A stretch of DNA of 32,000 bases from Pirellula sp. SH-Sr6A (GCF_001610875.1 NZ_CP011272.1:817988-849987); one strand, 5' to 3'. Positions 3,246-26,967 are shown, counted from the stretch's first letter. Program-made: numbers and translations. Notes: generated from the letters alone by a model not told the origin.

Positions 3246-3416
3246 GCGTTATAACCGTCTCAATCCTTGCGAATACTAAAATCGAGTTTATCGAATCCGG
3301 CGGGGCATCGATGGCCGGATTCTGAAATTGCCACTCGGCCAACTACGGGATTGCGTTCTAGGCTTACAGTGATTTCTTGGTCTTACCATTTGGTCCCGTC
3401 GAAGGTGTCGAACTTC

Positions 3417-3710
3417 ATGTCCAGGACTCCGATCATCAGCACACCACTCGCCTCTTCATCACCCTCCAGCGACGAATCGCTTCCAACACTGCCTTTCCCG
3501 GACCGGAGAAAACGAGCCTCCACCGATGCCACATCAGGTCCTCCCGGTGTTGAGAGAAGGCAGTTTGGCAACACGTACAATCATCTCTCCATGGACGGAC
3601 GCGAACTGGCAGAAGCGATCGATCGCTACAAAATACAGCATCGTCGGCGATATGTTACCACGGATGAATTACTTTCCGTCCTAAAAGGTCTTGGGTATAC
3701 ACGAGGTTAA
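3417..3710 (+). CDS. Small hypothetical protein (97 aa) with a Ser/Pro-rich N-terminus and a basic helical C-terminus
   Basis: This is the ATG at 3417 within ORF 3267-3710. There is no motif I can name. The C-terminal sequence ELAEAIDRYKIQHRRRYVTTDELLSVLKGLGY looks like a folded helical module. The coding call rests only on ORF length and position. Confidence 0.45.
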   Translation: MSRTPIISTPLASSSPSSDESLPTLPFPDRRKRASTDATSGPPGVERRQFGNTYNHLSMDGRELAEAIDRYKIQHRRRYVTTDELLSVLKGLGYTRG

Positions 3711-3725: not shown

Positions 3726-4019
3726 TCAATCGGCCGAAAGGGTCGAAGGGCCTTTTCCGACCGTCTTTTCGTACGACCCATCTCCGGTTTTCACGTACTT
3801 CGTGAATCCCAAGCGCTTTAGATTGTCGTCGTTGGTCGATTTACCCATCGCCGAATCCGACCACATCCCACCTATGGACGGAGCGCTCAGTACTCGTCGT
3901 ACCGGTTCGCCTGAGTCTGGGTGTACTTGGAGCGGTTCGTCACTCATACGTTGAATCACTTCGAACGTCTCTGGAGGGTCGACTCCTTCTCGAACAATCT
4001 CGTATACGTAAATCGGCAT
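3726..4019 (-). CDS. FmdB/CxxC_CxxC_SSSS-family-like small protein lacking all four zinc-ribbon cysteines
   Basis: MPIYVYEIVREG...ETFEVIQRMSDEPLQVHPDSGEPVRRVLSAP parallels the FmdB consensus MPIYEYxCxxCG..FEvlqkmsD.pl..CPxCG...kr.isap. It contains no Cys at all. It lies 14 bp downstream of the coiled-coil gene on the same strand. Confidence 0.65.
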   Translation of the reverse strand: MPIYVYEIVREGVDPPETFEVIQRMSDEPLQVHPDSGEPVRRVLSAPSIGGMWSDSAMGKSTNDDNLKRLGFTKYVKTGDGSYEKTVGKGPSTLSAD

Positions 4020-4033
4020 CGCGGTTCCAAATC

Positions 4034-5878
4034 TTAGTTTTGACTGGCTTTGATGAGGATATCTCGAGTCACTTCGTAGACTTTTTGCTGACGTCCAGCC
4101 AGATCCTCTAGTTCTGATTTTAGGTCAGGACTTTGCACTTGGCCAATGGCGTCCTCCGCTTGGTCCAACTGCTTAGCGACCGATTGGGTACGCCGGTTGA
4201 TTCGAAGCTGCAGCGTCTTCAGAAGCCGCAGTTCCGCCAAGCTATCGACCAAAGGTTGCTCCTTGGGATCTTGTTGCTGTCCCTGTTGCATCCCCTGCAT
4301 CTTCTTCTCATTTTCCTCTCGGTTCTTTTGAACCTGTTTGAGCGACTCGAGAAGCTCCTCGAGCCCGGCAATCACCTCGTCCTCGAGAGTTTGAGTGGAT
4401 TCGGAGACATTCCCGCTGACCAATCGTTTGGAGACCTGCTGGCAGTCCTTGACGATCTGTTCCATAGCTTCTGGGAATGCAGTGCTCGAACCTTCGTCTT
4501 GCAATAGGAGCAGTGCTCGCTGCCCCTCCATCACTATTTTTCCTTGCTCAATCGAAAGTTTGTTGGACTGGATTTCCAAACTCCGATCCTTCGCATCCCC
4601 GGTCAGTTCGAATAGCTTTTGGGTCTCACTGCGAACGACTTTTTGCATCTCATTCATCTTGCGAAGACGCGTTTCCAGATCGACCAAAGAACGTTCGATC
4701 TCTTCTTCGCGCAATTGCCGCAGAATTTTCTCGAGCTCCTCCACCGCATCACGCAATTCCTTCTCGGCTGCTTGTTGCTCTTCGACCGCATCCTTTCGAT
4801 TGTTCTCATCGAGCTTTTGCTGAGCTTGCTGCATCTTCTCCCTAGCTCGTTGGACCCGATTTCTGGCCCTTTCCTCTTTGGACTCTGGTTTGCTCGATTC
4901 GCTATTCTCGGGCGAAGAAGAGGAATCCGAGGAGGATGGATCGGATGGGTCTTTCGGCTCAGACGTGTCCGATGGCTTCTGCGTGTCCGATGGCTTCTGC
5001 GTGTCCGATGGTTTCTGGGTGTCCGATGGTTTCTGTGTATCCGACGGCTTCTGTGTATCCGACGGCTTCTGTGTATCCGACGGCTTCTGTGTATCCGACG
5101 GCTTCTGTGTATCCGACGGCTTCTGGGGGTCGGTGTTCTTTGGGGACTCTGCTGCTTGGCCGGAATCGGGGGACTTCCCAGAGTCCTTGGGCTCATTCGA
5201 TGGCGTGGAGTCCTTCGGTACCGCTTGGTTTTCTTTGTTTTCTGATTTGGGATCTTGCAGACTGGATTCGATCGCCTCAACTTGTTGGTTGAGGTCCTTT
5301 TGATCGTTGCTTGCCTGCTTCAGGTCTTGCCCGGCCTCGGTACGCCCTCGCAATGCGCGTTGGATGCTTTCAATGCGTCGCAAGTCGTTGAGAATTTCTT
5401 CGAGCTTGGCTCTTTCATCTCGTATGCGCGAAGCCCGGTTCTCGCTCTGCAGCAGTTCCAGCAATTTCTTAAGGGTGTCGTGAGCGGACTCCTGTTCTTG
5501 GATCGCTTTCGACAACTGCCCTTTTGCGATTAATTCTGCAGCAGAGTAGAGTCTTTGGCGGGTTCCAAGCTGTTTGCTAAGCTGTGCAGCTTGCATCAAT
5601 AGGCCTGCATGGGTTGGGTTCGAAACCGCTTCCAACTCACTCATGCGCAAGAACAGCTCTTCCAGCTTCTGAAATCGTTGAACCAGTTGCTTTTGTTTAG
5701 TCTCGAGCCCCTCCGCCTCGGTCCTCTCTTGGCCAGGAGCTTGTGCCTGCACAGAGCCAGCCCCAGGGAGCAAACCTAACATCGCGACCCAAACCAGGAC
5801 CAGTGCGATCGAGGCGACAAAGCGTGTACGACGCGATCGGGGTTGGTATGGCAATTTGGAAAAGTCGTCTGGGATCAT
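4034..5878 (-). CDS. N-terminally anchored or secreted coiled-coil protein with a KPSDTQ tandem-repeat linker
   Basis: The 614 aa ORF has a basic N-terminus followed by the hydrophobic helix FVASIALVLVWVAMLGLLPGAG. Long heptad-like E/K/Q/L-rich stretches flank an acidic S/P/D/K low-complexity core. There is a Gln-rich patch (MQGMQQGQQQD). The start ATG overlaps the upstream stop (ATGA at 5875-5878). Confidence 0.8.
   Translation of the reverse strand: MIPDDFSKLPYQPRSRRTRFVASIALVLVWVAMLGLLPGAGSVQAQAPGQERTEAEGLETKQKQLVQRFQKLEELFLRMSELEAVSNPTHAGLLMQAAQLSKQLGTRQRLYSAAELIAKGQLSKAIQEQESAHDTLKKLLELLQSENRASRIRDERAKLEEILNDLRRIESIQRALRGRTEAGQDLKQASNDQKDLNQQVEAIESSLQDPKSENKENQAVPKDSTPSNEPKDSGKSPDSGQAAESPKNTDPQKPSDTQKPSDTQKPSDTQKPSDTQKPSDTQKPSDTQKPSDTQKPSDTQKPSDTSEPKDPSDPSSSDSSSSPENSESSKPESKEERARNRVQRAREKMQQAQQKLDENNRKDAVEEQQAAEKELRDAVEELEKILRQLREEEIERSLVDLETRLRKMNEMQKVVRSETQKLFELTGDAKDRSLEIQSNKLSIEQGKIVMEGQRALLLLQDEGSSTAFPEAMEQIVKDCQQVSKRLVSGNVSESTQTLEDEVIAGLEELLESLKQVQKNREENEKKMQGMQQGQQQDPKEQPLVDSLAELRLLKTLQLRINRRTQSVAKQLDQAEDAIGQVQSPDLKSELEDLAGRQQKVYEVTRDILIKASQN
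4965..5126 (-). repeat. Nine tandem 18-bp coding repeats encoding (Q)KPSDT
   Basis: I counted the units directly: 4965, 4983, 5001, 5019, 5037, 5055, 5073, 5091 and 5109. Four units are of the type gtgtccgatgg[c/t]ttctg[c/g/t]. Five are of the type gtatccgacggcttctg[t/g]. The differences are synonymous, so the peptide repeat is perfect. Confidence 0.95.
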
Positions 5879-8277
5879 TTCAACAACTCCAACGCCTTGC
5901 GGTCTTGGTTCTTTTTGTGGGTTTTGGTCTCATTCATCAATTGATCGCTGCTCTGAATGATGTCTCGCAGCATATCGATGATGGCCGTTTGGTCTTGGAT
6001 CTCCAGCATATCTGCCAAGACAGCTTGAAGACGTGACAGGATCTCATCGTTCTTTTTCAAAGCATCGACCACTTGCGAGGGTGGAGGAGTCGGAGGTTCG
6101 GTCGCCTTCGAGAATGTCTTTTCCAGCTCGGCGACATCGCTCGAGAATTCTTTCCAGACGCCATCGAGCATTTGTCTCAAGGGAGCTTGGATCTTTTCTT
6201 GCCAGCGCGTTCGCCGGTCGACGCTATCGATTCGGTTATTGACCAGCTCTTTACTGATTTGTCCAATCTCCTTTTCGACGCCGTTCAATTCTCCCTCCGA
6301 CTTGGAAATCTGGGACATCGCCTGTTGAGATCGCAGCAACTGAATTCTCAAGATTCGGGTTGCATCCATTTCCTCCTCAGTACCCTCCGCATCGGAGCTG
6401 GATGCGGGCTCGCTTCGCTTTTGGATATTCACCAGCAGGTCTCGCAATTGCGTGAGTTCACCGATAATCTGCTCAATCCGCTTACGCATCGCCGCTTCAC
6501 GGCGATCGAGCAAGAGTAGCAATTGATCCGATGTCACAACAGAAAGTTGCACCGTATTCGCTTTCCCAAGATGGGGTTCGCTCACCAAATCGTAATAGTC
6601 CGACGCGACGAGGGTAAGCGCCAACGATCCGCCGGCTTGGATTGGAAGTTTCCCTGCATCTTTGAGTTCTTTGATATCGATCACTTTGGCGAGACTTCCA
6701 TCCACGACGTTTGCAATATCCTCACGAAGCGGGACGCCTTCCCCATACAATGCCTCGATCCAAACCTCTCGAACGTCGTATTCGTCCTTCACTTTGCCTT
6801 GAACAGGTATGGTCGCCACTTCTGTGATCGCCGTTCCGATACCATCGAGCACCATATCGACTTGCGGAGGCTGATCGATAATGGATGAAATTACAAATTG
6901 TTGCACCCGACTGGAGCAGATGCCATCTTTGTCCCAGACGCGAAATTCAGCGAGGATACTGCTGTCGAGCGGGCCAAGGGGAATGGCCCAACTTTCCGAA
7001 GGAGCCTCGTTCTCAAAGGTTTGCTCTTGCAAGTTGCCGTTAGTGGGTTCGGTGGATTTGACGAAGACATAATCACATCGCTCGATCGGCTTGTTGGACG
7101 TCAAAATCAATTCCAACACGGAGCCTTGAGGGAGCCGCAAGCCGGTTTGGTAGGGTAAAGTTTCTTCGCCCCATCGGGTCTGGGTCGATCGCTGAAGGTA
7201 GGGAGGGTATTTTACGCGAACCTCTGCCTTGGTAATCAATGGCCCGTCGACCGCTTGAAGCCGCAAGTCCGCTAGACGTGCATCGCCGCCGACGATACTC
7301 AACGTCAGGGATTGATTGATCGATTCGAGGGGCGGACCGTCGAGGAGGAAGTCTTGTTGTGAGTTTCCCGTCGCGAGGCGCCGCATGTTGGCTCGGCCGC
7401 GATTTCCTTCTTCGTCTCGATAATAAACGGTGCAAAGCTCGGGGACTCGCTTCGCGTCGAGCGATGCGAAGCTCTTCAGGACACCCGATTGGCCTTTGGG
7501 GATCGCGACGCTGTTGTCGACGAAAGGGAGCATATAGCGCCCCCGCGCTCCGCCGCCGGTAAAGCTGGGGACCTCGAACTCGATTCCTGTCACTCCCAAA
7601 ACGACGCTTCGCGGCCAAGGAGCGTTCGAGAGGGCGAACCACCGCTTGCTCCAATGGGCTGTCCATTGGGGGTAGAGCAAACCCAGGGTCAATGAGACAG
7701 CAAGGACCGATCCGAGAGCGATCATCTGCCATTGAAGCGGTCGTGTGCGGACCAAGTTTGCGATTTCGACCGTGGAAATTTGCTCCAAGGCGCGTTGTCG
7801 CGCTAAAGCTAAAAATCCGATCCGATGGGGGTGCTCCTCTCGATCGTCGGTTCGGATCGATGCCAACTCGCCGCGGGCGGGTCTGGTTGCTTGGACGGTT
7901 GTGATCAAGGCGCTTTGGAAATCGGGGTAACGTCTCTCGATCAACAGTGCGATCGCATCGTCGGACCACCTCACCAGCCAGCGCCGCCAAATTTGCTGGT
8001 ATGCGATATAGATCGATCCCAATACCAAGAGGACCAACATTCCAACGCGTACCCATCGCGGAGACTCCGCGGCTCCCAGCATGGCTGGCAAATAGTCGAC
8101 GAATCCAAAAATCCAGAACGCGGTGAAACCCCAGATCAGCCACTGGACCACGGCTTGCGAAAACACGAATCGCCCAAGTAGGCCACGGACCGCTTGCAAG
8201 GTTTCGCGGATCGGAACCGGTAACGAAGCGAGGTCGGAATCGTACGATGGACGGAGAACTTTAGGTGCGGTAGACAT
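5875..8277 (-). CDS. Large membrane protein: three N-terminal TM helices, a beta-rich middle region and a C-terminal coiled coil (possibly DUF4175/TIGR02302-like)
   Basis: The 800 aa ORF has hydrophobic helices at about aa 37-60, 76-94 and 183-202. The C-terminal ~200 aa are heptad-like (LLLLLDRREAAMRKRIEQIIGELTQLRDLL...). The gap to the upstream gene is 26 bp and there is a 4-bp overlap with the downstream gene. The family assignment is from memory of the family description only. Confidence 0.75.
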   Translation of the reverse strand: MSTAPKVLRPSYDSDLASLPVPIRETLQAVRGLLGRFVFSQAVVQWLIWGFTAFWIFGFVDYLPAMLGAAESPRWVRVGMLVLLVLGSIYIAYQQIWRRWLVRWSDDAIALLIERRYPDFQSALITTVQATRPARGELASIRTDDREEHPHRIGFLALARQRALEQISTVEIANLVRTRPLQWQMIALGSVLAVSLTLGLLYPQWTAHWSKRWFALSNAPWPRSVVLGVTGIEFEVPSFTGGGARGRYMLPFVDNSVAIPKGQSGVLKSFASLDAKRVPELCTVYYRDEEGNRGRANMRRLATGNSQQDFLLDGPPLESINQSLTLSIVGGDARLADLRLQAVDGPLITKAEVRVKYPPYLQRSTQTRWGEETLPYQTGLRLPQGSVLELILTSNKPIERCDYVFVKSTEPTNGNLQEQTFENEAPSESWAIPLGPLDSSILAEFRVWDKDGICSSRVQQFVISSIIDQPPQVDMVLDGIGTAITEVATIPVQGKVKDEYDVREVWIEALYGEGVPLREDIANVVDGSLAKVIDIKELKDAGKLPIQAGGSLALTLVASDYYDLVSEPHLGKANTVQLSVVTSDQLLLLLDRREAAMRKRIEQIIGELTQLRDLLVNIQKRSEPASSSDAEGTEEEMDATRILRIQLLRSQQAMSQISKSEGELNGVEKEIGQISKELVNNRIDSVDRRTRWQEKIQAPLRQMLDGVWKEFSSDVAELEKTFSKATEPPTPPPSQVVDALKKNDEILSRLQAVLADMLEIQDQTAIIDMLRDIIQSSDQLMNETKTHKKNQDRKALELLK

Positions 8278-8303
8278 ATCGATTATGGTAACCGATTCGA
8301 CCG

Positions 8304-11231
8304 CTAGTTGGTAACCTGAACACGCTTGTTCATCACTCTACCATCCCCAATTTGCTCGCATTGAAGCCAGATAGTACTTCCCAACAGCTCGCTGGCATCT
8401 TCAAAGACAAATGTTCGGCGCGACCTATCCGTTAGGTTGGCGATCTGCGTCCGTTGCCTTGTCCGACCAGGAATCTTGACGTAGCAATCGAAGCTTCCCG
8501 GTTTGCCCCCTCGATTGATGGCTTCGACTTCTACGATGAGTTCTCCATCGGGCCCCACGTTGTAACTGACTTCGAACTCAAATTCATCGCTCCCGATTTG
8601 CAATTCGTCTTCGGCCGTGATGGTAACCGGACCATCAGGTCCTTCAATCGACGCGACGATTTCGATCGGCGCTGGGCCTGTATTGGCATAGGGACTGAGT
8701 CGAACTGGGATTGCCACCTTCTCCATGCCGTTGGCTTCGACTTGAAATCGTTCAACGGATTGGTCGTCGTTCAGTGCGCTGCAGACAGGCAAAAGTGTTC
8801 CAGAAACGGGAAAAGGGAAAGGATTCTCAAAACTGACTTCGATGAATTCCTCCCGGCCCACCACGACATCTAGTTTTTGAGTCACGATAGACATCCCCAT
8901 TCGCCAACGGGCGGCATAGAGGTCAATCCCCTCGATGACGACCGGCCAATCCCGAATCTCAATCGACTGGATTGGACCTAACGACGATCGTTTATTGTCG
9001 ACTGGAACCGTTCGTCCCCACAGATCGCGAGCTCGAATATTTCGCCCCAAGTACAGATTAGCCTGAACATTTTGTGGCCCCCAGATCAATAGACTGGCTT
9101 GGTCGTCTCGCACCAATACAGCGTTTCTTCCCAGCCTGGCGGTCGGAAGGCTTCCCAGGTTTTGGACACTCGCGAGTGTCGAAGCAAGATTGCGAAACGG
9201 TATGAACATTTCCGCCGGACCACCCGCAGAGGAAAGGATGGCGTTGTTCTCGGACGCGGGATCGAACGCCCAGGCGATCACTTGTCCATTCCAAGGGGAC
9301 TCGGTCAGCATCACCATCCGTTCCGTTAAGTCGCGGACACGCGTTTCGAGACCGTACTGCTTCTGTGAAATAGGTGTGACGGACAGCCAAGGGAGAGATG
9401 GCCGCGAGGAATCGCCCTGACGATTGGTTAGCAGTCGTTTCGTTTCGGAACTTGACATCGCGACCGGACTATGAAGCTGCCAGGTATCGATGCTCGGTGC
9501 GTCGTCCACCTCGACAACCGGATTGTGTGCGGCAATCAACTGAACATCTTGCCCAAAGCGCTTTACTGTCTTTTCGATCGCCTCCAGGGAAGGTTTGAAT
9601 CCCGGGCTGTTTGCAAAGTCTGTTTCATCGTCCCATCCCAATTGAAAATGAACCAATCGCGAGCACATCGATTGGATAACGGGGTCCAGATAGGATTGAG
9701 TTAGATGAGGATCCTCTAAGGAGCTCGCCGTGTCGGCCGTTTTTAGTTTGGGAAAGAACGGGATCAACGAAGGTGGTGGGGTTGCGATCACGCCGACGCA
9801 GCGAATGCCTGAACTTTGAAACTGATCGATGCGCGAGGCCAGCTCAGCCCCTGCGTCCACGTCGCGAGGGTCGAACCATATGGGCAGTTTGATCCTTCCG
9901 ACGTGCATTTCACGCAACAATTCCAGCCAGCGCGTTTTGTCCAGCGATCGATCAAAGGGAACCCGATCCTCAGGAATGGACAATCCGATTTGGTTATTGA
10001 TCAACCCTGTATTCGTATCCGTCAACACAACGAAGCGATCGATCAATTCAAAGCGATCCGCCCGGCTTCGTTCCAACTGCGTCCGAACTTCGTAGTATCC
10101 TGGTTCTAGACCTTCCAACTCCCACCTGCATTCACCTTGCCAGCGATCCGCTTTACCTATCCCTCGTGAGGGCGATGAATGAGCCGGGGAGTTATCTAGA
10201 GCGACCAAGTGAGAAGCCATTGCGTTGGAGCCAGTGAGAGGTTCCAACTCCTTCGTGGCACGTCGAGCGATCCGACCGGTATGGTCTTTCAGTTGCAAGT
10301 CGAGCGACGATTGCAACTCGGTCATTCCGGTCGCGGTGCATTGCACGATGACCTTCTCTCCGACTCGAAAAATGCCAGAGGGCTTGTTAACCTGCAATGC
10401 GAGGCGAGGCGATCGTATTAACTCGATTGCATCGATTCCAAATCGCCCTCGAAACGCTTTCGAGTTCAAGGGTGCGACACGAAGCCGAATCTGTGCAAAA
10501 GCCACTCTCGGATCAAACGGATATTGATCGTTCGTCGTGAGGGATTGCCAGTTCTCAACCCCTCGAAGCGAGCGGGTGGAACGCTCGAGTACGACCTTGC
10601 GATCGCGATCTAGCAATGTCAATGTTGCGGAAAGCTCGTAGCCGAGATCTGGATCGTTCGCCATCCCCTGACAATGGATGCCATAGACCGAATCTCGCTC
10701 CACAGGGAGAAGCGGGGAAACGATTTCGGCAGCCCCCCCATCCATTTGGAACTCCAGATAGGGATTCAGCACCGACCGTTCCAACCACTGATCAAACTCT
10801 TTGGGCGTTGATTCCGGTGTGATTTGCCAAGGAAATTTCTTCAGTTTCCACGCCAACGACCACTGCGAAAATGTCCGTCGAAATTGCTCGATCTCCGCGA
10901 GGTCTTCTTTGGACGTGGCACGTCTCGTGATCCCAATCGATAGGTACTTGGGGTATTGCACCCCCGTACGTCTGGTCCAATCATCCGGCCAGCGATCCGC
11001 CTTGGCGTCTTCGTTGGCTCCAAAGTCCCAACGGTGCACCACGTCCAGTTTGCTCTCTGCGGCACGGAGATCGACCGAAGTCCCGACGCATCCGGAAAGG
11101 ACGAAAGCAGTCGCGATCCATCTCAATCGCATCTTGGCACTCTGCCAAGCAGAGACGATACTTGAGCGAAGCTTCGACTGCGATTGCAGCCGAGGTGCGT
11201 CTTTCCTATTTCGCAGGACACGAGGAATCAT
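8304..11231 (-). CDS. Large secreted or lipid-anchored protein of unknown function
   Basis: The ORF is 975 aa. The alternative start at 11132 (MRLRWIATAFVLSGCVGTS) gives a compact signal peptide with a lipobox-like LSGC. The longer start adds a 33 aa basic N-region. There are no catalytic motifs I can name. The segment LVHFQLGWDDETDF inside an alpha/beta-looking region is faintly reminiscent of clan GH-A TIM barrels, which is speculative. Confidence 0.75.
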   Translation of the reverse strand: MIPRVLRNRKDAPRLQSQSKLRSSIVSAWQSAKMRLRWIATAFVLSGCVGTSVDLRAAESKLDVVHRWDFGANEDAKADRWPDDWTRRTGVQYPKYLSIGITRRATSKEDLAEIEQFRRTFSQWSLAWKLKKFPWQITPESTPKEFDQWLERSVLNPYLEFQMDGGAAEIVSPLLPVERDSVYGIHCQGMANDPDLGYELSATLTLLDRDRKVVLERSTRSLRGVENWQSLTTNDQYPFDPRVAFAQIRLRVAPLNSKAFRGRFGIDAIELIRSPRLALQVNKPSGIFRVGEKVIVQCTATGMTELQSSLDLQLKDHTGRIARRATKELEPLTGSNAMASHLVALDNSPAHSSPSRGIGKADRWQGECRWELEGLEPGYYEVRTQLERSRADRFELIDRFVVLTDTNTGLINNQIGLSIPEDRVPFDRSLDKTRWLELLREMHVGRIKLPIWFDPRDVDAGAELASRIDQFQSSGIRCVGVIATPPPSLIPFFPKLKTADTASSLEDPHLTQSYLDPVIQSMCSRLVHFQLGWDDETDFANSPGFKPSLEAIEKTVKRFGQDVQLIAAHNPVVEVDDAPSIDTWQLHSPVAMSSSETKRLLTNRQGDSSRPSLPWLSVTPISQKQYGLETRVRDLTERMVMLTESPWNGQVIAWAFDPASENNAILSSAGGPAEMFIPFRNLASTLASVQNLGSLPTARLGRNAVLVRDDQASLLIWGPQNVQANLYLGRNIRARDLWGRTVPVDNKRSSLGPIQSIEIRDWPVVIEGIDLYAARWRMGMSIVTQKLDVVVGREEFIEVSFENPFPFPVSGTLLPVCSALNDDQSVERFQVEANGMEKVAIPVRLSPYANTGPAPIEIVASIEGPDGPVTITAEDELQIGSDEFEFEVSYNVGPDGELIVEVEAINRGGKPGSFDCYVKIPGRTRQRTQIANLTDRSRRTFVFEDASELLGSTIWLQCEQIGDGRVMNKRVQVTN

Positions 11232-11232
11232 T

Positions 11233-12012
11233 TTGCCAGGACTACGTGTTGGAATTCAACTCTCCGGATTGAAACTACCCTTCAAGCAAGCATTGCACGC
11301 TGCCGCACGAATGGGAGTCGATGGAATTGAAATCGACGCGCGATACGGACTGCGACCTTCCGAAATTGTCGGCACGGCGCTGCGGCAAATTCGGAAATTG
11401 CTTGAAGATCTAAATTTGCGAGTCGCATCGGTTAGGTACGCCACGCGGCGCGGGTACGATTGCGAAGAGGAATTGGAGCGCCGAATCGCGGGGACGAAGG
11501 AAGCCATGCGCATGGCGTACGATCTCGGTGCAAACGTCGTGGTGAACCACTGTGGCAACATTCCGGAGTCGCCCGACGAACTGTCCTATACGGTGCTGCG
11601 AAGTGTCCTCACGGACCTCGGGAATTACAGTCAGCGCGTAGGTGCATTTCTGGCCTGTGAAACAGGATCTGAACCCCTCGATCGCCTCGGTACCTTGATC
11701 GATTCCCTCCCAGAAGGCTCGGTGGGTATTACCTTGACCCCTGGTAATCTTCTCGTCAATGGCTTTGATCTGCAGCCGTTGCCGCAAGTGGCGAAACACG
11801 TGATGCTGGTCCATGCAAAGGACGGGGTCCGAGACCGTTCGCGCGGACGCGGTTCCGAAGTTGAGTTGGGGAGGGGGATGGCAGAATTTCCTGAAATAGC
11901 AGGAACACTCGAGGAGCAACACTTCAATGGGTATTACATTGTAGAGCGGGATAACCCGCGGAACCCAATCGAAGAGATTGCGACCTCCGTTGAGTTTCTA
12001 AAGAATATGTAA
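11233..12012 (+). CDS. Sugar phosphate isomerase/epimerase (xylose-isomerase-like TIM barrel) family protein
   Basis: The C-terminal 259 aa of ORF 10801-12012 carry the family hallmarks: GVDGIEID, LRVASV, AYDLGANVVVNH, ACETGSEP, VHAKD. The upstream 430 nt of that ORF is antisense to the 975 aa gene, so I use the in-frame TTG at 11233, preceded by GAGGA at 11222-11226. The exact start is uncertain. Confidence 0.7.
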   Translation: MPGLRVGIQLSGLKLPFKQALHAAARMGVDGIEIDARYGLRPSEIVGTALRQIRKLLEDLNLRVASVRYATRRGYDCEEELERRIAGTKEAMRMAYDLGANVVVNHCGNIPESPDELSYTVLRSVLTDLGNYSQRVGAFLACETGSEPLDRLGTLIDSLPEGSVGITLTPGNLLVNGFDLQPLPQVAKHVMLVHAKDGVRDRSRGRGSEVELGRGMAEFPEIAGTLEEQHFNGYYIVERDNPRNPIEEIATSVEFLKNM

Positions 12013-12095
12013 CTGGTGAACACTGCGTTCAGACCCCGACGAACTCGCAACCTATGGACGCTCCCCTCTATTCAGACCGTTTAAGGAACTATTCG

Positions 12096-12587
12096 ATGAA
12101 ATCCACGTTTTGGTCTGGTTTGTTGTTGGCAACGTTGTCCGTTTCATCGTTTCTGATCATTCCCCGCGATCCCTCGGCCGCGCAAGAGCGCGCAGCACAA
12201 TCGAAGCCCCCCGTCGCTGAATTCGAAGAATACCTCAGCAATTCAAAACTAACGGGTGTCTTTACAATCGATGGGAAACCCTTGGAAAAACTGGAAACTG
12301 AAACCTACGAGATCAAGTCTGCGAAGAAGCTCGAGGGTTACGATTCACTTTGGGAAATCGTTGCGAGAATCAAATATGGCGACAAGGATATCGAGGTACC
12401 CGTCGAGATCAACGTCGAATGGATCGGCCGGACGCCAGTCATGGTGATGGACTCGATGGCCATCCCAGGACTCGGTACATTCTCCGCTCGCGTTCTCTTT
12501 CACGACAAGAAGTACTCAGGGACATGGAAGCACGATAATCACGGGGGCCATCTTTTTGGCCGCGTCGAAAAAATGAACGCCAAGTAA
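12096..12587 (+). CDS. Small secreted hypothetical protein
   Basis: The ATG at 12096 follows AAGGAA. The signal peptide is MKSTFWSGLLLATLSVSSFLII. There is no recognisable motif. Confidence 0.55.
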   Translation: MKSTFWSGLLLATLSVSSFLIIPRDPSAAQERAAQSKPPVAEFEEYLSNSKLTGVFTIDGKPLEKLETETYEIKSAKKLEGYDSLWEIVARIKYGDKDIEVPVEINVEWIGRTPVMVMDSMAIPGLGTFSARVLFHDKKYSGTWKHDNHGGHLFGRVEKMNAK

Positions 12588-15118: not shown

Positions 15119-17476
15119 TTAACTGGCAGACTGCTTCTCCGGGTATTTGATGCGGCCGTGATAAATGGCAGTCAGGCTCTTAGTAAGCGACGTTTTGATC
15201 AGTTCCAGCTCTTTCAGCGTCAACGCGCACTCCTCAAATTGACCGTCGAGCAACTTTTTCATCGCGATCTGCTCAACGAGGTTCTGAAGGCGCGATGGCG
15301 TTGGCTCTACCAACGCGCGCGACGCACTTTCCACCGCGTCCGCCAACATCAGAACCGCAGCTTCACGCGTCTGAGGCTTGGGGCCGGGATAGCGGTAGGT
15401 GTTCTCGGTGACTTCATCGGCGTGCGGATCCTGTTCGCTTTTCTTCGTCGCCATCCGGAAGAAGTACTCGACCAAAGTCGTGCCGTGATGCTGTTCAATG
15501 AAATCGATGATCCGCTTTGGGAGCTTATGCTTCCGTCCCAAGTCGGCACCGTCTTTGACGTGGGCGATGATGATGAGCGTGCTCATCGCGGGCTGCAAGG
15601 TATCGTGGCGGTTTGCACCAGGGGTTTGGTTCTCAACGAAGTAATTCGGCTTGAACATCTTTCCGATGTCATGAAAACAGGCTCCGACACGGACGAGCAA
15701 TCCGTTTGCCCCAATCGCTTCTGCTGCCGACTCGGCCAACGCCGCTACAGAGATGCTGTGGTTGTAGGTTCCGGGCGCTCGCTGAGCCAATTGCCGAAGA
15801 AGCGGATGACTCATATCGCTGAGTTCCAAGAGGCTTAAATCCGTCTGAACATCGAGGAGACGTTCGAAAACCGGAAGCAAACCGGCCATGAGAGGTCCGC
15901 AAGCGAACACGATTACTGCCTGCCATGCAGCTTCGTTGATCAAACGAACAGGAAATAGACTGTTGGTAAAGGTTTGGATGCCGCTCATCGCGGGACCATC
16001 GGTGATCACTCCCCCCGACTGCCCAGTCATGACTCCCAGTCCGAGCACGGTAAAAAAGACAACCGTTGCGACGCCGAGCCCTACATAAATGAGCCGAGTC
16101 CGGTTCCGAATTCGTCCACACAACAAAGTGGCCGCCGCTGCCGCGCTGGAAAGCACGATAAACTCGGACAGATCGACCCGAGAACAAAACGATATCAACA
16201 AAGAGAGCGCCGCCATCAACATCAAAGACGTGGGGCGACCGAATGCAATCGTGGCTACTATGGCGGTGAGTGTGACCGGAGCAACTTCCGCCCGCAATGG
16301 ATCGCTCGCTGCGAGCACCGACAGAATCACACACCCCAAACACACGCCGAGGACTTGTGTGAGTTTGACCGTGTCGGTGATAAGGGTTCGATCCAACGAT
16401 TGATATATGAAAAAACCGACCAACACGTACAACGCGGTAATCAGACCACAAAATGCAGCGAGTCTTTGAAGGCGTAGTTTCCACGTCAGCTTCGAGGTGT
16501 AAGCAGCATGCTCTGCCCGGAGCAGTGCTATTTCCTTTTCGCCAAGCATCTTACCGATCGGGACGATCGATCCGAAGTTCGGATCGTAGGAGACCATCGC
16601 GGGCTTGACCGCTGCAATCGCTTCCTGCCTGGCTTTGTTACTTCGGTCCGTATTGAGCGTCAGTGTTTCTGGCAAATTGAGCGAAAGGTAATTGAAGACC
16701 AATTGGGCCAAGGTCCTCGATTCCTCATTCGGAAAGAGATTGCGAATCTCTCGTATCAACGAGGTTCGCAATGAGTTGTTCAACTCTGCAAGCCTCACAC
16801 GTTGAACTTCTACGTCGATGTGTTGGTTTTCACTGCCGGGCTTGATGACGCGGATGTAGCGTTGATTCCCCAACTCCAAATCATGAGCCAATGTCTTAAG
16901 CGTCCCGGTCTCCAAAATAGGATCGAGAACCTCGCGCATAGCCGAAGTGTACTTGGACCAATCGGACGAGCTAGCGAGCGTTTTGTGGATTGCTTCCAAT
17001 GCCGCTTCGTGCGGGATCTTTTGGGGCAAAGGCTCGCCATCCGACACCCCGAGCACATCGAGCAACGCGATCTGGGGCTTGGTCAGGGAGGTCACATCGG
17101 GAACTTCGTGAAGGGCCTGAAGCGTATCTCGCAGCGCCCCGGCCAGTTGCACAATCGCTTCATTGCGATTCTCGTACACACAATAGACCTCGCGAGCCGC
17201 TTGAGATTTCAGAACCTCCGTTTTGACTTCGTCGACAACTTGAAAGGGAACTCGAGCCAAGATCGATCGCTGCGGCACGAAGCCTTGGCGATAAGCGAAC
17301 GGGGGCTCCCAAGCTCGTACGAAGACGACGATGAAGACCGCAACGGCGACGGCGATACCGAGCTTTCCGAGCGACTCCCAAGTTGCCGCTTTGGCTAACC
17401 AAGCCCTCCAGGGGTAGCGATCGATTCGCAAATTCGCAGCGCGTTCGCTGCGGGTTCTAGCATTCGTGTTGGACAC
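15119..17476 (-). CDS. pgpH: 7TM-receptor HD/HDIG phosphohydrolase (PgpH/YqfF-like)
   Basis: The 785 aa ORF has an extracytoplasmic N-terminal domain after one TM helix. A central multi-TM block follows, then a C-terminal HD domain with HSISVA, CFHDIGK and EQHHGT. It sits immediately downstream of phoH (18-bp gap), as in many bacteria. Confidence 0.85.
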   Translation of the reverse strand: MSNTNARTRSERAANLRIDRYPWRAWLAKAATWESLGKLGIAVAVAVFIVVFVRAWEPPFAYRQGFVPQRSILARVPFQVVDEVKTEVLKSQAAREVYCVYENRNEAIVQLAGALRDTLQALHEVPDVTSLTKPQIALLDVLGVSDGEPLPQKIPHEAALEAIHKTLASSSDWSKYTSAMREVLDPILETGTLKTLAHDLELGNQRYIRVIKPGSENQHIDVEVQRVRLAELNNSLRTSLIREIRNLFPNEESRTLAQLVFNYLSLNLPETLTLNTDRSNKARQEAIAAVKPAMVSYDPNFGSIVPIGKMLGEKEIALLRAEHAAYTSKLTWKLRLQRLAAFCGLITALYVLVGFFIYQSLDRTLITDTVKLTQVLGVCLGCVILSVLAASDPLRAEVAPVTLTAIVATIAFGRPTSLMLMAALSLLISFCSRVDLSEFIVLSSAAAAATLLCGRIRNRTRLIYVGLGVATVVFFTVLGLGVMTGQSGGVITDGPAMSGIQTFTNSLFPVRLINEAAWQAVIVFACGPLMAGLLPVFERLLDVQTDLSLLELSDMSHPLLRQLAQRAPGTYNHSISVAALAESAAEAIGANGLLVRVGACFHDIGKMFKPNYFVENQTPGANRHDTLQPAMSTLIIIAHVKDGADLGRKHKLPKRIIDFIEQHHGTTLVEYFFRMATKKSEQDPHADEVTENTYRYPGPKPQTREAAVLMLADAVESASRALVEPTPSRLQNLVEQIAMKKLLDGQFEECALTLKELELIKTSLTKSLTAIYHGRIKYPEKQSAS

Positions 17477-17494
17477 AGCAGTCAGTCTAAAGGT

Positions 17495-18481
17495 TTAACG
17501 GTCGACCGGCGGGCTTGGCCTCAATGGGCGCGAGCCAGGCGATTGGGGGCTGTCATACGCGGCGACGATTTTTCGGACGAGCGGATGACGAACGATATCT
17601 CCCTCCGATAGCCGGACAAAGCTAAGTCCGGGAATTCCACTCAGTCTCTGGACGGCGTCTCGAAGACCGCTCGTGGTACCAGGTGGCAAGTCGACTTGCG
17701 ACACATCCCCGGAAACCACGATCTTGGAGCCTTCGCCCATCCGTGTCAAAAACATCTTCATTTGCGCGACAGTGGCGTTTTGCGCCTCGTCCAATATAAC
17801 AAATGCTTGATTCAAGGTTCGGCCTCGCATGTAGGCCAACGGAATGACCTCGATGACGTTCTGCTCCATCAAGTATTTGACTTGATCGAAATCGATCATC
17901 TCGTTGATGGCATCCAGCAGCGGTCGCAAATAGGGATTGAGCTTCTCCTGGAGATCTCCCGGTAGGTACCCCAAACTTTCCCCCGCTTCGACCGCCGGCC
18001 TGACCAAAACAATTTTCCGGATGGACTTAGCCTTCAATGCTTCAACAGCCATGGCGACCGCGAGATAGGTTTTTCCACAACCGGCGGGACCGATGCAAAA
18101 GGTCATATCGTGCTGCCGTATCGCCTCCAGGTAGGCGGCCTGCCCCTCCGTTCGAGGTTTGATCCGCCTGCCGGCATTTCCAATGGCAACTTCGTTCTTG
18201 TCAAATCCTGGCGCAGTTCGTTTGTCCGTCGATCCGCCCAGTGCGTCAGCAACATCGTCGGGCCCCAATGCGCCGGTCCGAAAGACACGGTCCTTCAATC
18301 GCTCCAAAACCTCGGTGGCAATGCGTACCGACTCGCTTGGACCCGAGATGCGAATCTGTCCGTTGCGATGCGTGATCGCGACTCCCAACTGATTTCGGAC
18401 CAACCGCAGATTGTTATCGTTGGGGCCGAACAATTGAAGCGTGATGTGGGGGTCGGATAGAGTGATCGTTGATTCTGACAT
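17495..18481 (-). CDS. phoH: PhoH-family ATPase (YbeZ-like)
   Basis: It has the Walker A motif GPAGCGKTYLAVAMAVEAL, the Walker B-like VILDEAQN, and DLPPGTTSGL. The length is 328 aa. Confidence 0.9.
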   Translation of the reverse strand: MSESTITLSDPHITLQLFGPNDNNLRLVRNQLGVAITHRNGQIRISGPSESVRIATEVLERLKDRVFRTGALGPDDVADALGGSTDKRTAPGFDKNEVAIGNAGRRIKPRTEGQAAYLEAIRQHDMTFCIGPAGCGKTYLAVAMAVEALKAKSIRKIVLVRPAVEAGESLGYLPGDLQEKLNPYLRPLLDAINEMIDFDQVKYLMEQNVIEVIPLAYMRGRTLNQAFVILDEAQNATVAQMKMFLTRMGEGSKIVVSGDVSQVDLPPGTTSGLRDAVQRLSGIPGLSFVRLSEGDIVRHPLVRKIVAAYDSPQSPGSRPLRPSPPVDR

Positions 18482-22964: not shown

Positions 22965-23078
22965 AAAAAAACTGCCCGTTAGAGGCCCTCGCACAAGAGT
23001 ACGACGCTTATGGCTGCTCCACTTAAGTCCTGACCAGGTTCGCGCTTCCCCCTCGCGAGAGCCACTGACGGGCAGTAG
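22965..23078 (-). ncRNA. ffs: Signal recognition particle RNA (small bacterial 4.5S type)
   Basis: The minus-strand read is CUGCCCGUCAGUGGCUCUCGCGAGGGGGAAGCGCGAACCUGGUCAGGACUUAAGUGGAGCAGCCAUAAGCGUCGUACUCUUGUGCGAGGGCCUCUAACGGGCAG followed by UUUUUUU. The domain IV core CCUGGUCAGG...AGCAGCC parallels E. coli ACCAGGUCAGG...AGCAGCC. The long hairpin is supported by CUGCCCGU/ACGGGCAG (8 bp) and GGCUCUCGCG/UGCGAGGGCC (10 bp including G-U pairs). The ends are approximate to within about 5 nt. Confidence 0.8.
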
Positions 23079-25161: not shown

Positions 25162-26967
25162 ATGGCAGCACAGTTTTGCATTGGAATCGATCTTGGAACG
25201 ACCAACTCTGTCGTTGCGTTCGCCCCCCTGGATGAACCCGATGCGATGGTGGCAGTCCTCCCCATCCCGCAAGTCGTCGCACCAGGAACGGTGGAACGTC
25301 GACTCTCACTCCCGTCGTTTCTTCTACGCACACGCGGACCGATTGACGAGTCGCTCCAAATATCGGGCTTTCGATCCCCGTTTGGTGTGGTGGGCGAATA
25401 CGCTCGCCGCATTGCGAGCGAACAACCAGACCATTGCGTTGCTGCGGCAAAAAGTTGGCTCTGTCACCGAGACGTCGATCGCAACGCACCCCTACTACCT
25501 TGGGGATCGGAGGATCCCGATTCCAAAATCTCGCCCGTCGATGCGACGACGGCGTATCTCACCCATTTGATCGATGCGTGGCATCTCCAATTCCCCGACG
25601 CTCCTTTCCAAGACCAACACATCGTTCTGACAGTCCCCGCTTCCTTTGACCTCGACGCTCGCGAACTGACCAAAATGGCGGCCCTCGCAGCCGGATTCCC
25701 TGAAGCGTTTGTATTCCTCGAAGAGCCTCAAGCGGCCCTTTACAATTGGATTCTTGCCCATGGAAACCAGTGGAGAAAACAACTAAGGAAGCATGACACA
25801 CTTCTCGTTTGCGACGTGGGAGGCGGAACAACCGACTTGACATTGGTCGAAGTCGTCGAGGAGGCAGGAGAACTTCAATTGAAGCGAGTGGCAGTCGGCA
25901 ATCACTTGCTCGTAGGCGGGGACAACATGGACCTAACGCTTGCTCATGTGGCCTCGCAACTGTTCGCAGCTAAAGGTACGAAACTAAACGCATGGCAATC
26001 CATTTCGCTATGGCATTCGTGCCGACTAGCGAAAGAGGCGCTCCTCAAACCGAATGCACCAGCCAGTTTCCCACTCAATGTTCTTGGTCGTGGCAGCAAA
26101 CTGATCGGGGGAACCGTTTCGATCGATCTGGAGCGCTCGATCGTCGAGGCCACACTCGTCGACGGCTTCTTTCCAAAAGTCGGCAAAGGAGAACGCGCCC
26201 TCCAAGACACCGATACGGGTTTTCAGGAAATTGGCCTCCCTTTCGAACCGGACTCCGCCATCACACGCCACATCGCAAGCTTTCTCGACGACCACCTTCG
26301 AAATTCCGATCAACAATCGGTCTCTCACCTTCTGTTCAACGGGGGCGTTTTCAACTCCGAGGCATTCCGCCAACGATTGATTGAAACCATCCGTAGCTGG
26401 CAATCCGATTCCAACGACTCGTCGGGTACGGACTCGCTCCAAGGTCCGCAGGTTCTCGGTGGAATCGAGGAACTGGACCAAGCCGTCGCTTGCGGGGCAG
26501 CATACTATGGATGGGCCAAATCACACGGCGGGATTCGAATCCGCGGAGGAACCGCTAGGAGCTATTACATCGGGATCGAATCGTCCGGCCCCGCTATCCC
26601 CGGAATGCCTCGACCTCTTCATGCCCTGTGCGTCGTTCCGCAAGGAATGGAAGAGGGGACCGAATGCGATATCCAAAGCAAAGAGGTCGGGCTCCGCACG
26701 GGACGCAAAGCGCGTTTCCGATTTTTCTCCAGCACATCACGCTCCGAGGACCGCCCCGGAACACTTCTTCGACATTGGGATGACGAGGAGTTGCTCGAAA
26801 CATCGCCCATGGAAACCGAATTGCCGGCATCCGAAACCCAAGGCCTCGTGCCTGTCCGATTTCACGCCAAAGTAACCGAACTCGGAACATTGGAACTCGC
26901 GTGCAAAAGCACTCGAAATCCAGACGCCTGGAAATTAGAAATCCGCGTCCGCGACGAAGCAGAATAG
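25162..26967 (+). CDS. Atypical Hsp70-family (actin-like ATPase) protein with a non-canonical C-terminal domain
   Basis: IGIDLGTTNSVVAF is phosphate-1 and LLVCDVGGGTTDLTLVEV is phosphate-2. VGGDNMD is present. The adenosine motif is degenerate (LLFNGGVFNSEAFRQRL). The length is 601 aa, with no EEVD tail or helical lid that I can see. Confidence 0.8.
   Translation: MAAQFCIGIDLGTTNSVVAFAPLDEPDAMVAVLPIPQVVAPGTVERRLSLPSFLLRTRGPIDESLQISGFRSPFGVVGEYARRIASEQPDHCVAAAKSWLCHRDVDRNAPLLPWGSEDPDSKISPVDATTAYLTHLIDAWHLQFPDAPFQDQHIVLTVPASFDLDARELTKMAALAAGFPEAFVFLEEPQAALYNWILAHGNQWRKQLRKHDTLLVCDVGGGTTDLTLVEVVEEAGELQLKRVAVGNHLLVGGDNMDLTLAHVASQLFAAKGTKLNAWQSISLWHSCRLAKEALLKPNAPASFPLNVLGRGSKLIGGTVSIDLERSIVEATLVDGFFPKVGKGERALQDTDTGFQEIGLPFEPDSAITRHIASFLDDHLRNSDQQSVSHLLFNGGVFNSEAFRQRLIETIRSWQSDSNDSSGTDSLQGPQVLGGIEELDQAVACGAAYYGWAKSHGGIRIRGGTARSYYIGIESSGPAIPGMPRPLHALCVVPQGMEEGTECDIQSKEVGLRTGRKARFRFFSSTSRSEDRPGTLLRHWDDEELLETSPMETELPASETQGLVPVRFHAKVTELGTLELACKSTRNPDAWKLEIRVRDEAE

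Follow-up and report, generated by a model that had tools for sequence, protein, structure and literature searches.

Gene content of the locus

We analyzed a 32 kb window of the genome of Pirellula sp. SH-Sr6A (GCF_001610875.1, NZ_CP011272.1:817988-849987; all coordinates below are counted over the whole window), in which four closely packed minus-strand genes, here called g975, g800, g614, and g97, form a cluster. The central finding concerns the two middle genes: g800 and g614 belong together as a conserved pair, which, from gene neighborhoods in related genomes, is best read as the detached tail of a Bat-like MoxR-VWA operon, and g975 and g97 are bystanders, recent neighbors of the pair. 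The open reading frames (ORFs) of the cluster and its borders are listed here (lengths in amino acids, aa):

3267-3710, plus strand: convergent ORF of 147 aa, no Pfam family, at the 3′ border of the cluster
3726-4019, minus strand: g97, 97 aa (ORF list)
4034-5878, minus strand: g614, 614 aa (ORF list)
4968-5125, minus strand: KPSDTQ-encoding tandem repeat, 18 bp in 8.8 copies (Tandem Repeats Finder)
5875-8277, minus strand: g800, 800 aa (ORF list)
8304-11231, minus strand: g975, ORF as first read (ORF list)
8304-11132, minus strand: g975 with corrected start, 942 aa from M34
11233-12012, plus strand: AP_endonuc_2 (xylose-isomerase-like TIM barrel) gene, 259 aa, TTG start (Pfam, E = 1.5e-24)
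12054-12587, plus strand: ORF of 177 aa, no Pfam family, beside the AP_endonuc_2 gene and g975

A preliminary description of this DNA had presented the four genes as a self-contained envelope operon with no recognizable enzymology, bounded by a divergent gene on one side and a convergent gene on the other. The ORF list reproduces the packing it gave: a 14-bp gap between g614 and g97, a 4-bp ATGA overlap between g800 and g614, and a 26-bp gap between g975 and g800. The borders were also correctly placed, with the AP_endonuc_2 gene starting at TTG 11233 (a start mapped by comparison with a homologue) and the convergent ORF at 3267-3710, which has counterparts of 63-85% identity in three related loci (L001-L003). 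A consensus scan for promoters and terminators returned fewer matches than shuffled controls, and it placed no terminator-like site between the four minus-strand genes. Searches of the four proteins against Pfam and NCBIfam gave zero matches to Walker or catalytic families, and nothing beyond a sub-threshold FmdB/Zn_ribbon_8 match in g97 and a low-complexity match to Cementoin in the repeat of g614.

The g800-g614 pair as a conserved unit

A profile-guided scan, with one genome per species, yielded 80 loci with g800 relatives, and the neighbors in these loci were called by tblastn with the window proteins. A g614 homologue was found directly downstream of g800 in all 80, and at least 30 of the 65 loci in which both ORFs could be delimited show a 4-bp start/stop overlap between the two genes. 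The two also occur joined: in one metagenome-assembled genome (MAG; GCA_041747075.1, L088, 10001-13831), a g800-like and a g614-like sequence are fused in a single ORF of 1276 aa (P0281). In this protein, the g800 profile aligns to residues 29-782 and the second conserved block of g614 to residues 990-1264 (40% identity, E = 6e-46), with block 1 recognizable in between; the junction, where a linker takes the place of the signal peptide, is free of hydrophobic segments. The fusion is known from this one MAG, and an assembly or frameshift artifact is possible. An ORF of 372 aa follows P0281 and may be the TPR-like operon member described below. Because of the adjacency in 80 of 80 loci, the recurrent overlap, and the natural fusion, we regard g800 and g614 as one conserved unit, probably translationally coupled and probably with products in the same compartment.

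In most loci of the Pirellula clade the pair is found alone, between unrelated or opposite-strand genes. In Pirellulaceae bacterium SH449 (L010, 6384-9870), the same-strand genes directly upstream of the pair encode an ABC-transporter ATPase and a protein of 858 aa with a weak, sub-threshold match to an ABC-2 membrane domain, which indicates that different lineages have filled that slot with different genes.

The family is widespread: a word-index search with g800 returned 213 homologues (none of the 120 listed carries a Pfam annotation), and at E ≤ 1e-3 the g800 profile matched 3097 representative clusters (drawn at 50% identity), 716 of them at E ≤ 1e-30. As far as these profiles can tell, g800 and g614 represent a sizeable family for which no Pfam or NCBIfam model matches any tested member.

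Predicted architecture of the g800 and g614 proteins

Hydropathy places three hydrophobic helices in g800, at residues 42-60, 74-96, and 183-203, and the AlphaFold2 (AF2) model (predicted local distance difference test, pLDDT, 85.8) shows the same three transmembrane (TM) segments within long helices that extend to residue 214. About 600 residues of soluble domains follow in the model: three immunoglobulin (Ig)- or macroglobulin (MG)-like beta-sandwiches (approximately 227-343, 348-466, and 472-580) and a C-terminal bundle of long helices (583-799). This agrees with the earlier description of an 800 aa protein with three TM helices, a beta-rich middle, and a helical tail of about 200 aa. Foldseek comparison with the PDB returned only Ig-, FN3-, and macroglobulin-domain proteins (for example, complement C3 MG domains and bacterial adhesin repeats), with no enzyme fold among the matches, and sequence and profile searches of the PDB with g800 gave nothing significant. 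Neither g800 and g614 nor their distant orthologues matched the BatD (PF13584), BatA (PF07584), or VWA domains of Pfam at E ≤ 1.

In the family alignment, the invariant residues of g800 cluster in the 97-152 part of the loop between TM2 and TM3 (residues 97-182), and this loop stays invariant in both the Pirellula clade and its sister clade. The charge counts of the loops (K/R versus D/E: 5 versus 3 at the N-terminus, 0 versus 2 in the 61-73 loop, and 14 versus 11 in the 97-182 loop) are weakly informative, and would suggest a topology with the N-terminus inside. We infer a cytoplasmic position for the 97-182 loop and a periplasmic one for the whole of the protein beyond TM3, the latter mainly because g614 carries a signal peptide and the fusion protein has none at its junction.

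The g614 protein has a single N-terminal hydrophobic segment (residues 17-45, ending SVQA|QA), which looks like a cleavable signal. A conservation profile of 62 sequences divides the remainder into a conserved helical block 1 (approximately residues 60-200), a linker (approximately 200-335), and a block 2 (approximately 340-614), which contains a Gln-rich patch, MQGMQQGQQQ. The nine KPSDTQ units and the Gln patch of the preliminary description are both present. Blocks 1 and 2 show weak similarity to each other (hhalign probability 30%). The linker is acidic, rich in S, P, D, and K, hypervariable in sequence, and consistent in composition; the repeat at 4968-5125 encodes the nine KPSDTQ units within it. 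The number of KPSD(T/S)Q units varies among close strains: compared with the nine of the window, SH467 (L003) has a visibly larger number and SH501 (L001) a smaller one; the linkers of distant relatives are acidic but unrelated in sequence. The differences in repeat number between close strains point to rapid expansion and contraction under a compositional constraint.

Association with Bat-like MoxR-DUF58-BatA-VWA operons

Few bacterial gene clusters of still unknown function are as widespread as the MoxR-DUF58-VWA or Bat operons; Bat-type operons include batA-E of Bacteroides fragilis, with homologues in spirochaetes, Riemerella anatipestifer, and Rhizobium leguminosarum. In the sister genera of Pirellula (Neorhodopirellula, Novipirellula, Stieleria, and Rubripirellula, together with MAGs), genes for MoxR, DUF58, BatA_N, and VWA proteins lie directly upstream of the g800 orthologue, and the gene after the g614 orthologue encodes a protein of about 370 aa that weakly resembles TPR proteins. 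For example, the four upstream genes in L061 were identified by Pfam as AAA_3 (MoxR, E = 1e-61), DUF58 (E = 3e-48), a BatA_N protein of 808 aa, and a VWA protein of 910 aa. By tblastn the arrangement is present in 12 of 17 informative sister-clade loci (L060, L061, L064-L066, L070, L071, L074, L075, and L077-L079; L060 and L065 end at a contig edge and show the proximal genes only), three further sister-clade loci being too short to score.

The arrangement recurs outside the Pirellulales, in a distant planctomycete: on pPL62-3, an 81 kb plasmid of Planctomyces sp. SH-PL62 (L083, NZ_CP011276.1, 551-13523), DUF58, BatA, and VWA genes are followed by the pair, with a g800-like protein of 744 aa and a g614-like protein of 542 aa, both labeled "hypothetical protein" by the Prokaryotic Genome Annotation Pipeline (PGAP). 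The presence of this Bat-like operon on a plasmid suggests that the module can move horizontally. A protein of 912 aa with an NPCBM/NEW2 domain, encoded after the pair on pPL62-3, was compared with g975 and with P0144 and is unrelated to either. Within the Pirellula clade, tblastn located a MoxR gene, or MoxR and DUF58 genes, on the downstream side of the pair in three loci (L034, L035, and L042), at a distance of about 7-9 kb.

Since the pairs of those 12 sister-clade loci and of pPL62-3 directly follow MoxR, DUF58, BatA, and VWA genes, the pair in the window is, on this comparison, best read as the detached tail of such an operon. It resembles the Bat-like operons in two ways: its orthologues stand in an operon after MoxR, DUF58, BatA_N, and VWA genes and before that of a TPR-like protein, and its products are predicted to be membrane-anchored and periplasm-facing, with no recognizable catalytic fold, like BatC, BatD, and BatE. 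It differs in that the window locus has no MoxR, DUF58, BatA, or VWA genes, and in that g800 and g614 have no VWA, BatA, BatD, or TPR match in Pfam and form a separate family without a Pfam model. A link to Bat-like genes had been drawn in the preliminary description, by way of DUF4175, and the absence of such genes from the window noted; the link is confirmed for the orthologous pairs themselves, and the idea of a trimmed Bat-like locus, which it had raised as an alternative, holds in part, for the sister clade and not everywhere.

Relation to DUF4175 and TIGR02302

The likeness to DUF4175/TIGR02302 that had been proposed for the 800 and 614 aa proteins holds for gross layout and not for membership by profile hidden Markov model (HMM). 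Some TIGR02302 proteins are single long chains and others are divided between two tandem ORFs, and the pair likewise has split (80 loci) and fused (P0281) forms. The two have in common N-terminal TM helices, a long extracytoplasmic region, and Gln-rich low-complexity stretches: g800 fits the scheme in which two to three TM helices at the N-terminus precede a long outer region (its external location being a prediction), and the Gln-rich patch and linker of g614 are likenesses of composition, which are no proof of homology. The pair differs in that g800 has three TM helices rather than two, and in that the low-complexity and Gln-rich parts are in g614, not in g800.

Neither g800 nor g614 of the window matched DUF4175 or TIGR02302 at E ≤ 1 in Pfam or NCBIfam, and DUF4175 was also missing from five further g614 and three further g800 proteins among the distant orthologues; at E ≤ 0.1 there was no match in six g614-family proteins and in 37 of 38 g800-family proteins. 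The sole match was obtained with the g800 relative P0219 (PF13779, E = 1.4e-4, 20.5 bits as compared with a gathering score of 27.3), and aligns HMM positions 200-330 of 825 to a segment corresponding to g800 residues 367-518, in the beta-sandwich region. None of the 44 proteins tested thus reached the curated thresholds of DUF4175/TIGR02302, and formal membership fails; remote homology is still conceivable, because the P0219 match falls in a globular and not in a low-complexity region.

This possibility, in which the pair would be a very divergent DUF4175/TIGR02302 protein split into two ORFs and sharing the function of that family in the envelope or in division, seems to us somewhat unlikely. 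The common layout, the Gln-rich stretches, the split and fused forms, and the position of the P0219 match speak for it, as does the inclusion of a TIGR02302 protein in the CenR regulon of Rhodobacter sphaeroides, which concerns the envelope and division (PMC9275681); the literature on DUF4175/TIGR02302 otherwise yielded incidental mentions only. It is opposed by the lack of any match in the four window proteins, the six g614-family proteins, and all but one of the 38 g800-family proteins, by the low score of that one match and the absence of a TIGR02302 match in NCBIfam, and by the PGAP label of the plasmid orthologues. Moreover, a rhizobial plasmid MoxR-DUF58 operon carries a DUF4159 gene and a gene for a hypothetical protein, and no DUF4175 gene, so that the supposed association of DUF4175 with MoxR finds no confirmation here.

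The neighboring genes g975 and g97

With 100% identity, g975 corresponds to the protein VN12_03255 of Pirellula sp. SH-Sr6A, whose annotated length is 942 aa; since the divergent gene starts at 11233, we place the true start at M34 (nucleotide 11132), which matches that length. Of the earlier description as a secreted or lipobox-bearing protein of 940-975 aa, the secreted protein of 942 aa is retained; the lipobox Cys is not conserved among homologues. The AF2 model of g975 (pLDDT 73.9, predicted TM-score, pTM, 0.40; residues 531-587 of the barrel are of low confidence) has the domain order jelly-roll, Ig-like, alpha/beta barrel-like, and several beta-sandwiches. The top Foldseek matches in the PDB, with E-values between 1e-15 and 1e-11 but TM-scores of only about 0.12, are glycoside hydrolase family 2 (GH2) enzymes: beta-glucuronidases, an exo-glucosaminidase, beta-mannosidases, and beta-galactosidases. 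The domain order and these matches fit GH2, whereas the low TM-scores, the low pTM, and the absence of a GH Pfam match set g975 apart from them: no GH family of Pfam was matched by g975 or 22 relatives, no GH model of NCBIfam by g975, and sequence and profile searches of the PDB with g975 returned nothing significant. E503, in the motif QLGWDDE, is nearly invariant and could be an acid/base residue; no catalytic nucleophile, and no canonical pair of acid/base and nucleophile Glu residues, was identified in g975.

We found 24 detectable homologues of g975. Four of them (L081, L082, L089, and L090; about 40-44% identity) are on contigs with flanking sequence, and in each the g975 homologue is divergent from a gene for a 259 aa AP_endonuc_2 protein and an ORF of 166-171 aa (in the position that the 177 aa ORF has in the window), with no g800 or g614 homologue nearby. 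A small ORF after the g975 homologue in L081 was compared with g97 and is not related to it. The AP_endonuc_2 gene is also divergent from g975 in L001-L003 and L005-L007, where the 177 aa ORF is conserved as well. Among the 80 loci, g975 adjoins the pair only in L001-L007, the closest relatives of the window (g800 identity of at least 60%). In the MAG GL72_DN_metabinner_12, the g975 homologue is on contig JAYVPJ010000050 (L081) and the pair on contig JAYVPJ010000069 (L026).

From the modeled fold, we read g975 as a secreted glycosidase-like protein, with catalysis unproven, tied to a sugar-phosphate-isomerase-like gene; the trio of a g975-like gene, an AP_endonuc_2 gene, and an ORF of about 170 aa may form a small unit for carbohydrate processing that is confined to the Pirellula group. 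The phrase "no recognizable enzymology" is accordingly sound for the pair, which has no enzyme fold or family, and questionable for the GH2-like g975. That g975 is the large secreted partner of the pair, as had been supposed, is unlikely, because its homologues elsewhere keep the AP_endonuc_2 gene and the ORF of about 170 aa in the absence of g800 and g614.

The g97 protein had been described as FmdB-like and devoid of cysteines, and it is both: it contains zero cysteines and scores just below the cutoffs of Zn_ribbon_8 in Pfam (27.3 bits versus 34.4) and TIGR02605 in NCBIfam (28.1 bits versus 31.3). It shares with FmdB/Zn_ribbon_8 proteins (PF09723, TIGR02605) the N-terminus MPIYxY (MPIYVYE in the g97 family) and is colinear with the whole 41-position Pfam profile; it differs in lacking the four zinc-binding cysteines and in having a conserved C-terminal extension of about 50 residues with the motif GFTKYVKxGDGxYEKT. 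Its 189 homologues (about 51-99% identity) are mostly labeled FmdB or Zn-ribbon, and the ones that carry a source name span Pirellulaceae to Phycisphaerae. Cysteine is absent from all seven g97-family sequences inspected, which have the C-terminal motif in common. Judged from its sequence, then, g97 is a member of a conserved cysteine-free FmdB-like branch across the Planctomycetota. Among the 80 loci it adjoins g614 only in L001-L007, and in the sole other context examined, the metagenome contigs L085-L087, a g97 homologue (62% identical, 6001-6351) precedes purE and purK.

As to whether the four-gene order is conserved in related genomes, the answer is therefore a divided one, with g975 and g97 scattered and the pair syntenic in all 80 loci. 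The tight packing is no sign of a single function at the level of the operon: g975 and g97 are recent neighbors of the pair and have conserved partners of their own elsewhere.

Other features of the window

The rest of the window contains housekeeping genes and genes typical of planctomycetes, including DUF1559/N_methyl, PhoH, 7TM-HD receptor, YchF, and class II tRNA synthetase genes. A tRNA scan found no tRNA genes in the window. Three further features are listed here:

15119-18481, minus strand: 7TM-HD receptor gene (7TMR-HDED, 7TM-7TMR_HD, HD), directly downstream of a co-directional PhoH-like ATPase gene
22975-23069, minus strand: small signal recognition particle (SRP) RNA (RF00169; 42.5 bits versus a gathering score of 40), the only Rfam match in the window
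25162-26967, plus strand: ORF of 601 aa with a partial, weak Hsp70/actin-fold match (E = 4e-13, residues 152-356)

The PhoH-like ATPase and the 7TM-HD receptor are a common conserved gene pair, unrelated to g800 and g614. The 601 aa ORF, which lies upstream of genes for PhoU and an OmpR-type response regulator, may encode a divergent Hsp70-like ATPase.

Interpretation

We consider it moderately likely that three independent units became neighbors in the SH-Sr6A subclade of Pirellula and make up a mosaic cluster, in which g800 and g614 are a periplasm-facing, two-subunit structural module derived from a Bat-like operon and have no recognizable catalytic fold. The ancestral operon would have encoded a MoxR AAA+ ATPase, DUF58, BatA_N, and VWA proteins, then g800 and g614 as its fifth and sixth genes, and a TPR-like protein of about 370 aa. 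The three helices of g800 would anchor the module in the cytoplasmic membrane, and its conserved loop of about 85 residues would be a candidate cytoplasmic contact for the MoxR/DUF58 machinery; the three Ig-like domains and the helical bundle would form a periplasmic stalk. We propose that g614 is exported by its signal peptide, that its two helical blocks may bind g800, and that its acidic linker may serve as a flexible spacer, the two proteins together making an extended scaffold of a MoxR-VWA envelope complex. As is assumed for other MoxR-VWA/Bat loci, the complex would presumably help to maintain the envelope or to tolerate stress; in the Pirellula clade, where the pair is separated from the MoxR genes, it probably still works with them. 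The membrane-anchored fibrous scaffold of the preliminary description is in this way kept for the pair, as a coupled, non-enzymatic, and largely fibrous or helical module, and given up for g975, which has other conserved neighbors elsewhere and a GH2-like fold.

Several observations weigh against this proposal. No MoxR genes are found upstream of the pair in 5 of the 17 informative sister-clade loci, and Pfam scans of the 32 kb window detected no MoxR, DUF58, BatA, or VWA genes (as the preliminary description had said for MoxR, DUF58, and VWA); most Pirellula-clade pairs stand alone, and may thus be independent of MoxR. Local hhalign comparison of the C-terminal bundle of g800 with the g614 blocks detected no paralogy. 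The 26-bp gap between g975 and g800 has no terminator, making co-transcription and some functional link possible within the subclade. Lastly, the function of Bat/MoxR-VWA systems is itself unsettled, deletion of the bat genes in Leptospira biflexa having given no phenotype (PMC3557215).

If the Pirellula-clade pair had turned into an independent envelope scaffold or tether, able to do without MoxR and VWA proteins, its occurrence as a stand-alone two-gene unit in most loci of that clade would be accounted for, as would its good conservation there (45-60% identity over the full length). We think this unlikely: the cytoplasmic loop, the candidate partner interface, is invariant across both clades, MoxR/DUF58 genes lie within 9 kb of the pair in L034, L035, and L042, and separation in the genome does not imply separation in function. 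Very unlikely, in our judgment, is a single self-contained scaffold operon of all four genes, with g975 as large secreted partner and g97 as small accessory factor: the tight same-strand junctions (26, -4, and 14 bp) with no terminator-like site between them, and the same order in L001-L003 and L005-L007 (L004 is cut upstream), fit it, but this order is limited to the one subclade with g800 identity of at least 60% (of the 80 loci, only L001-L007 have g975 and g97 beside the pair), g975 and the pair are on different contigs in one MAG, g975 elsewhere keeps its AP_endonuc_2 gene and ORF of about 170 aa instead, g97 homologues extend to Phycisphaerae and have purE and purK as neighbors in another genome, and the slot upstream of the pair is taken by ABC-transporter genes in SH449.

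Returning to the pair as a Bat-derived module, a more specific and decidedly tentative proposal, which we rate as improbable, is that g800 and g614 make up a separate type of periplasmic stalk with two subunits, encountered to date in planctomycetes only. MoxR/DUF58 would assemble or remodel this stalk through the invariant g800 loop, and the stalk would cross the planctomycetal envelope, which has an unusual structure, and tether the inner membrane to the wall or the outer membrane under the control of ATP. If true, this would give the MoxR-VWA "Bat" systems a concrete structural output. On the broader reading, planctomycetes add to their Bat operons a conserved two-protein module, predicted to be an Ig-stalk membrane anchor with a secreted helical partner; such a module would be a concrete and testable structural component of these systems, with the invariant cytoplasmic loop of g800 as the obvious candidate interface.

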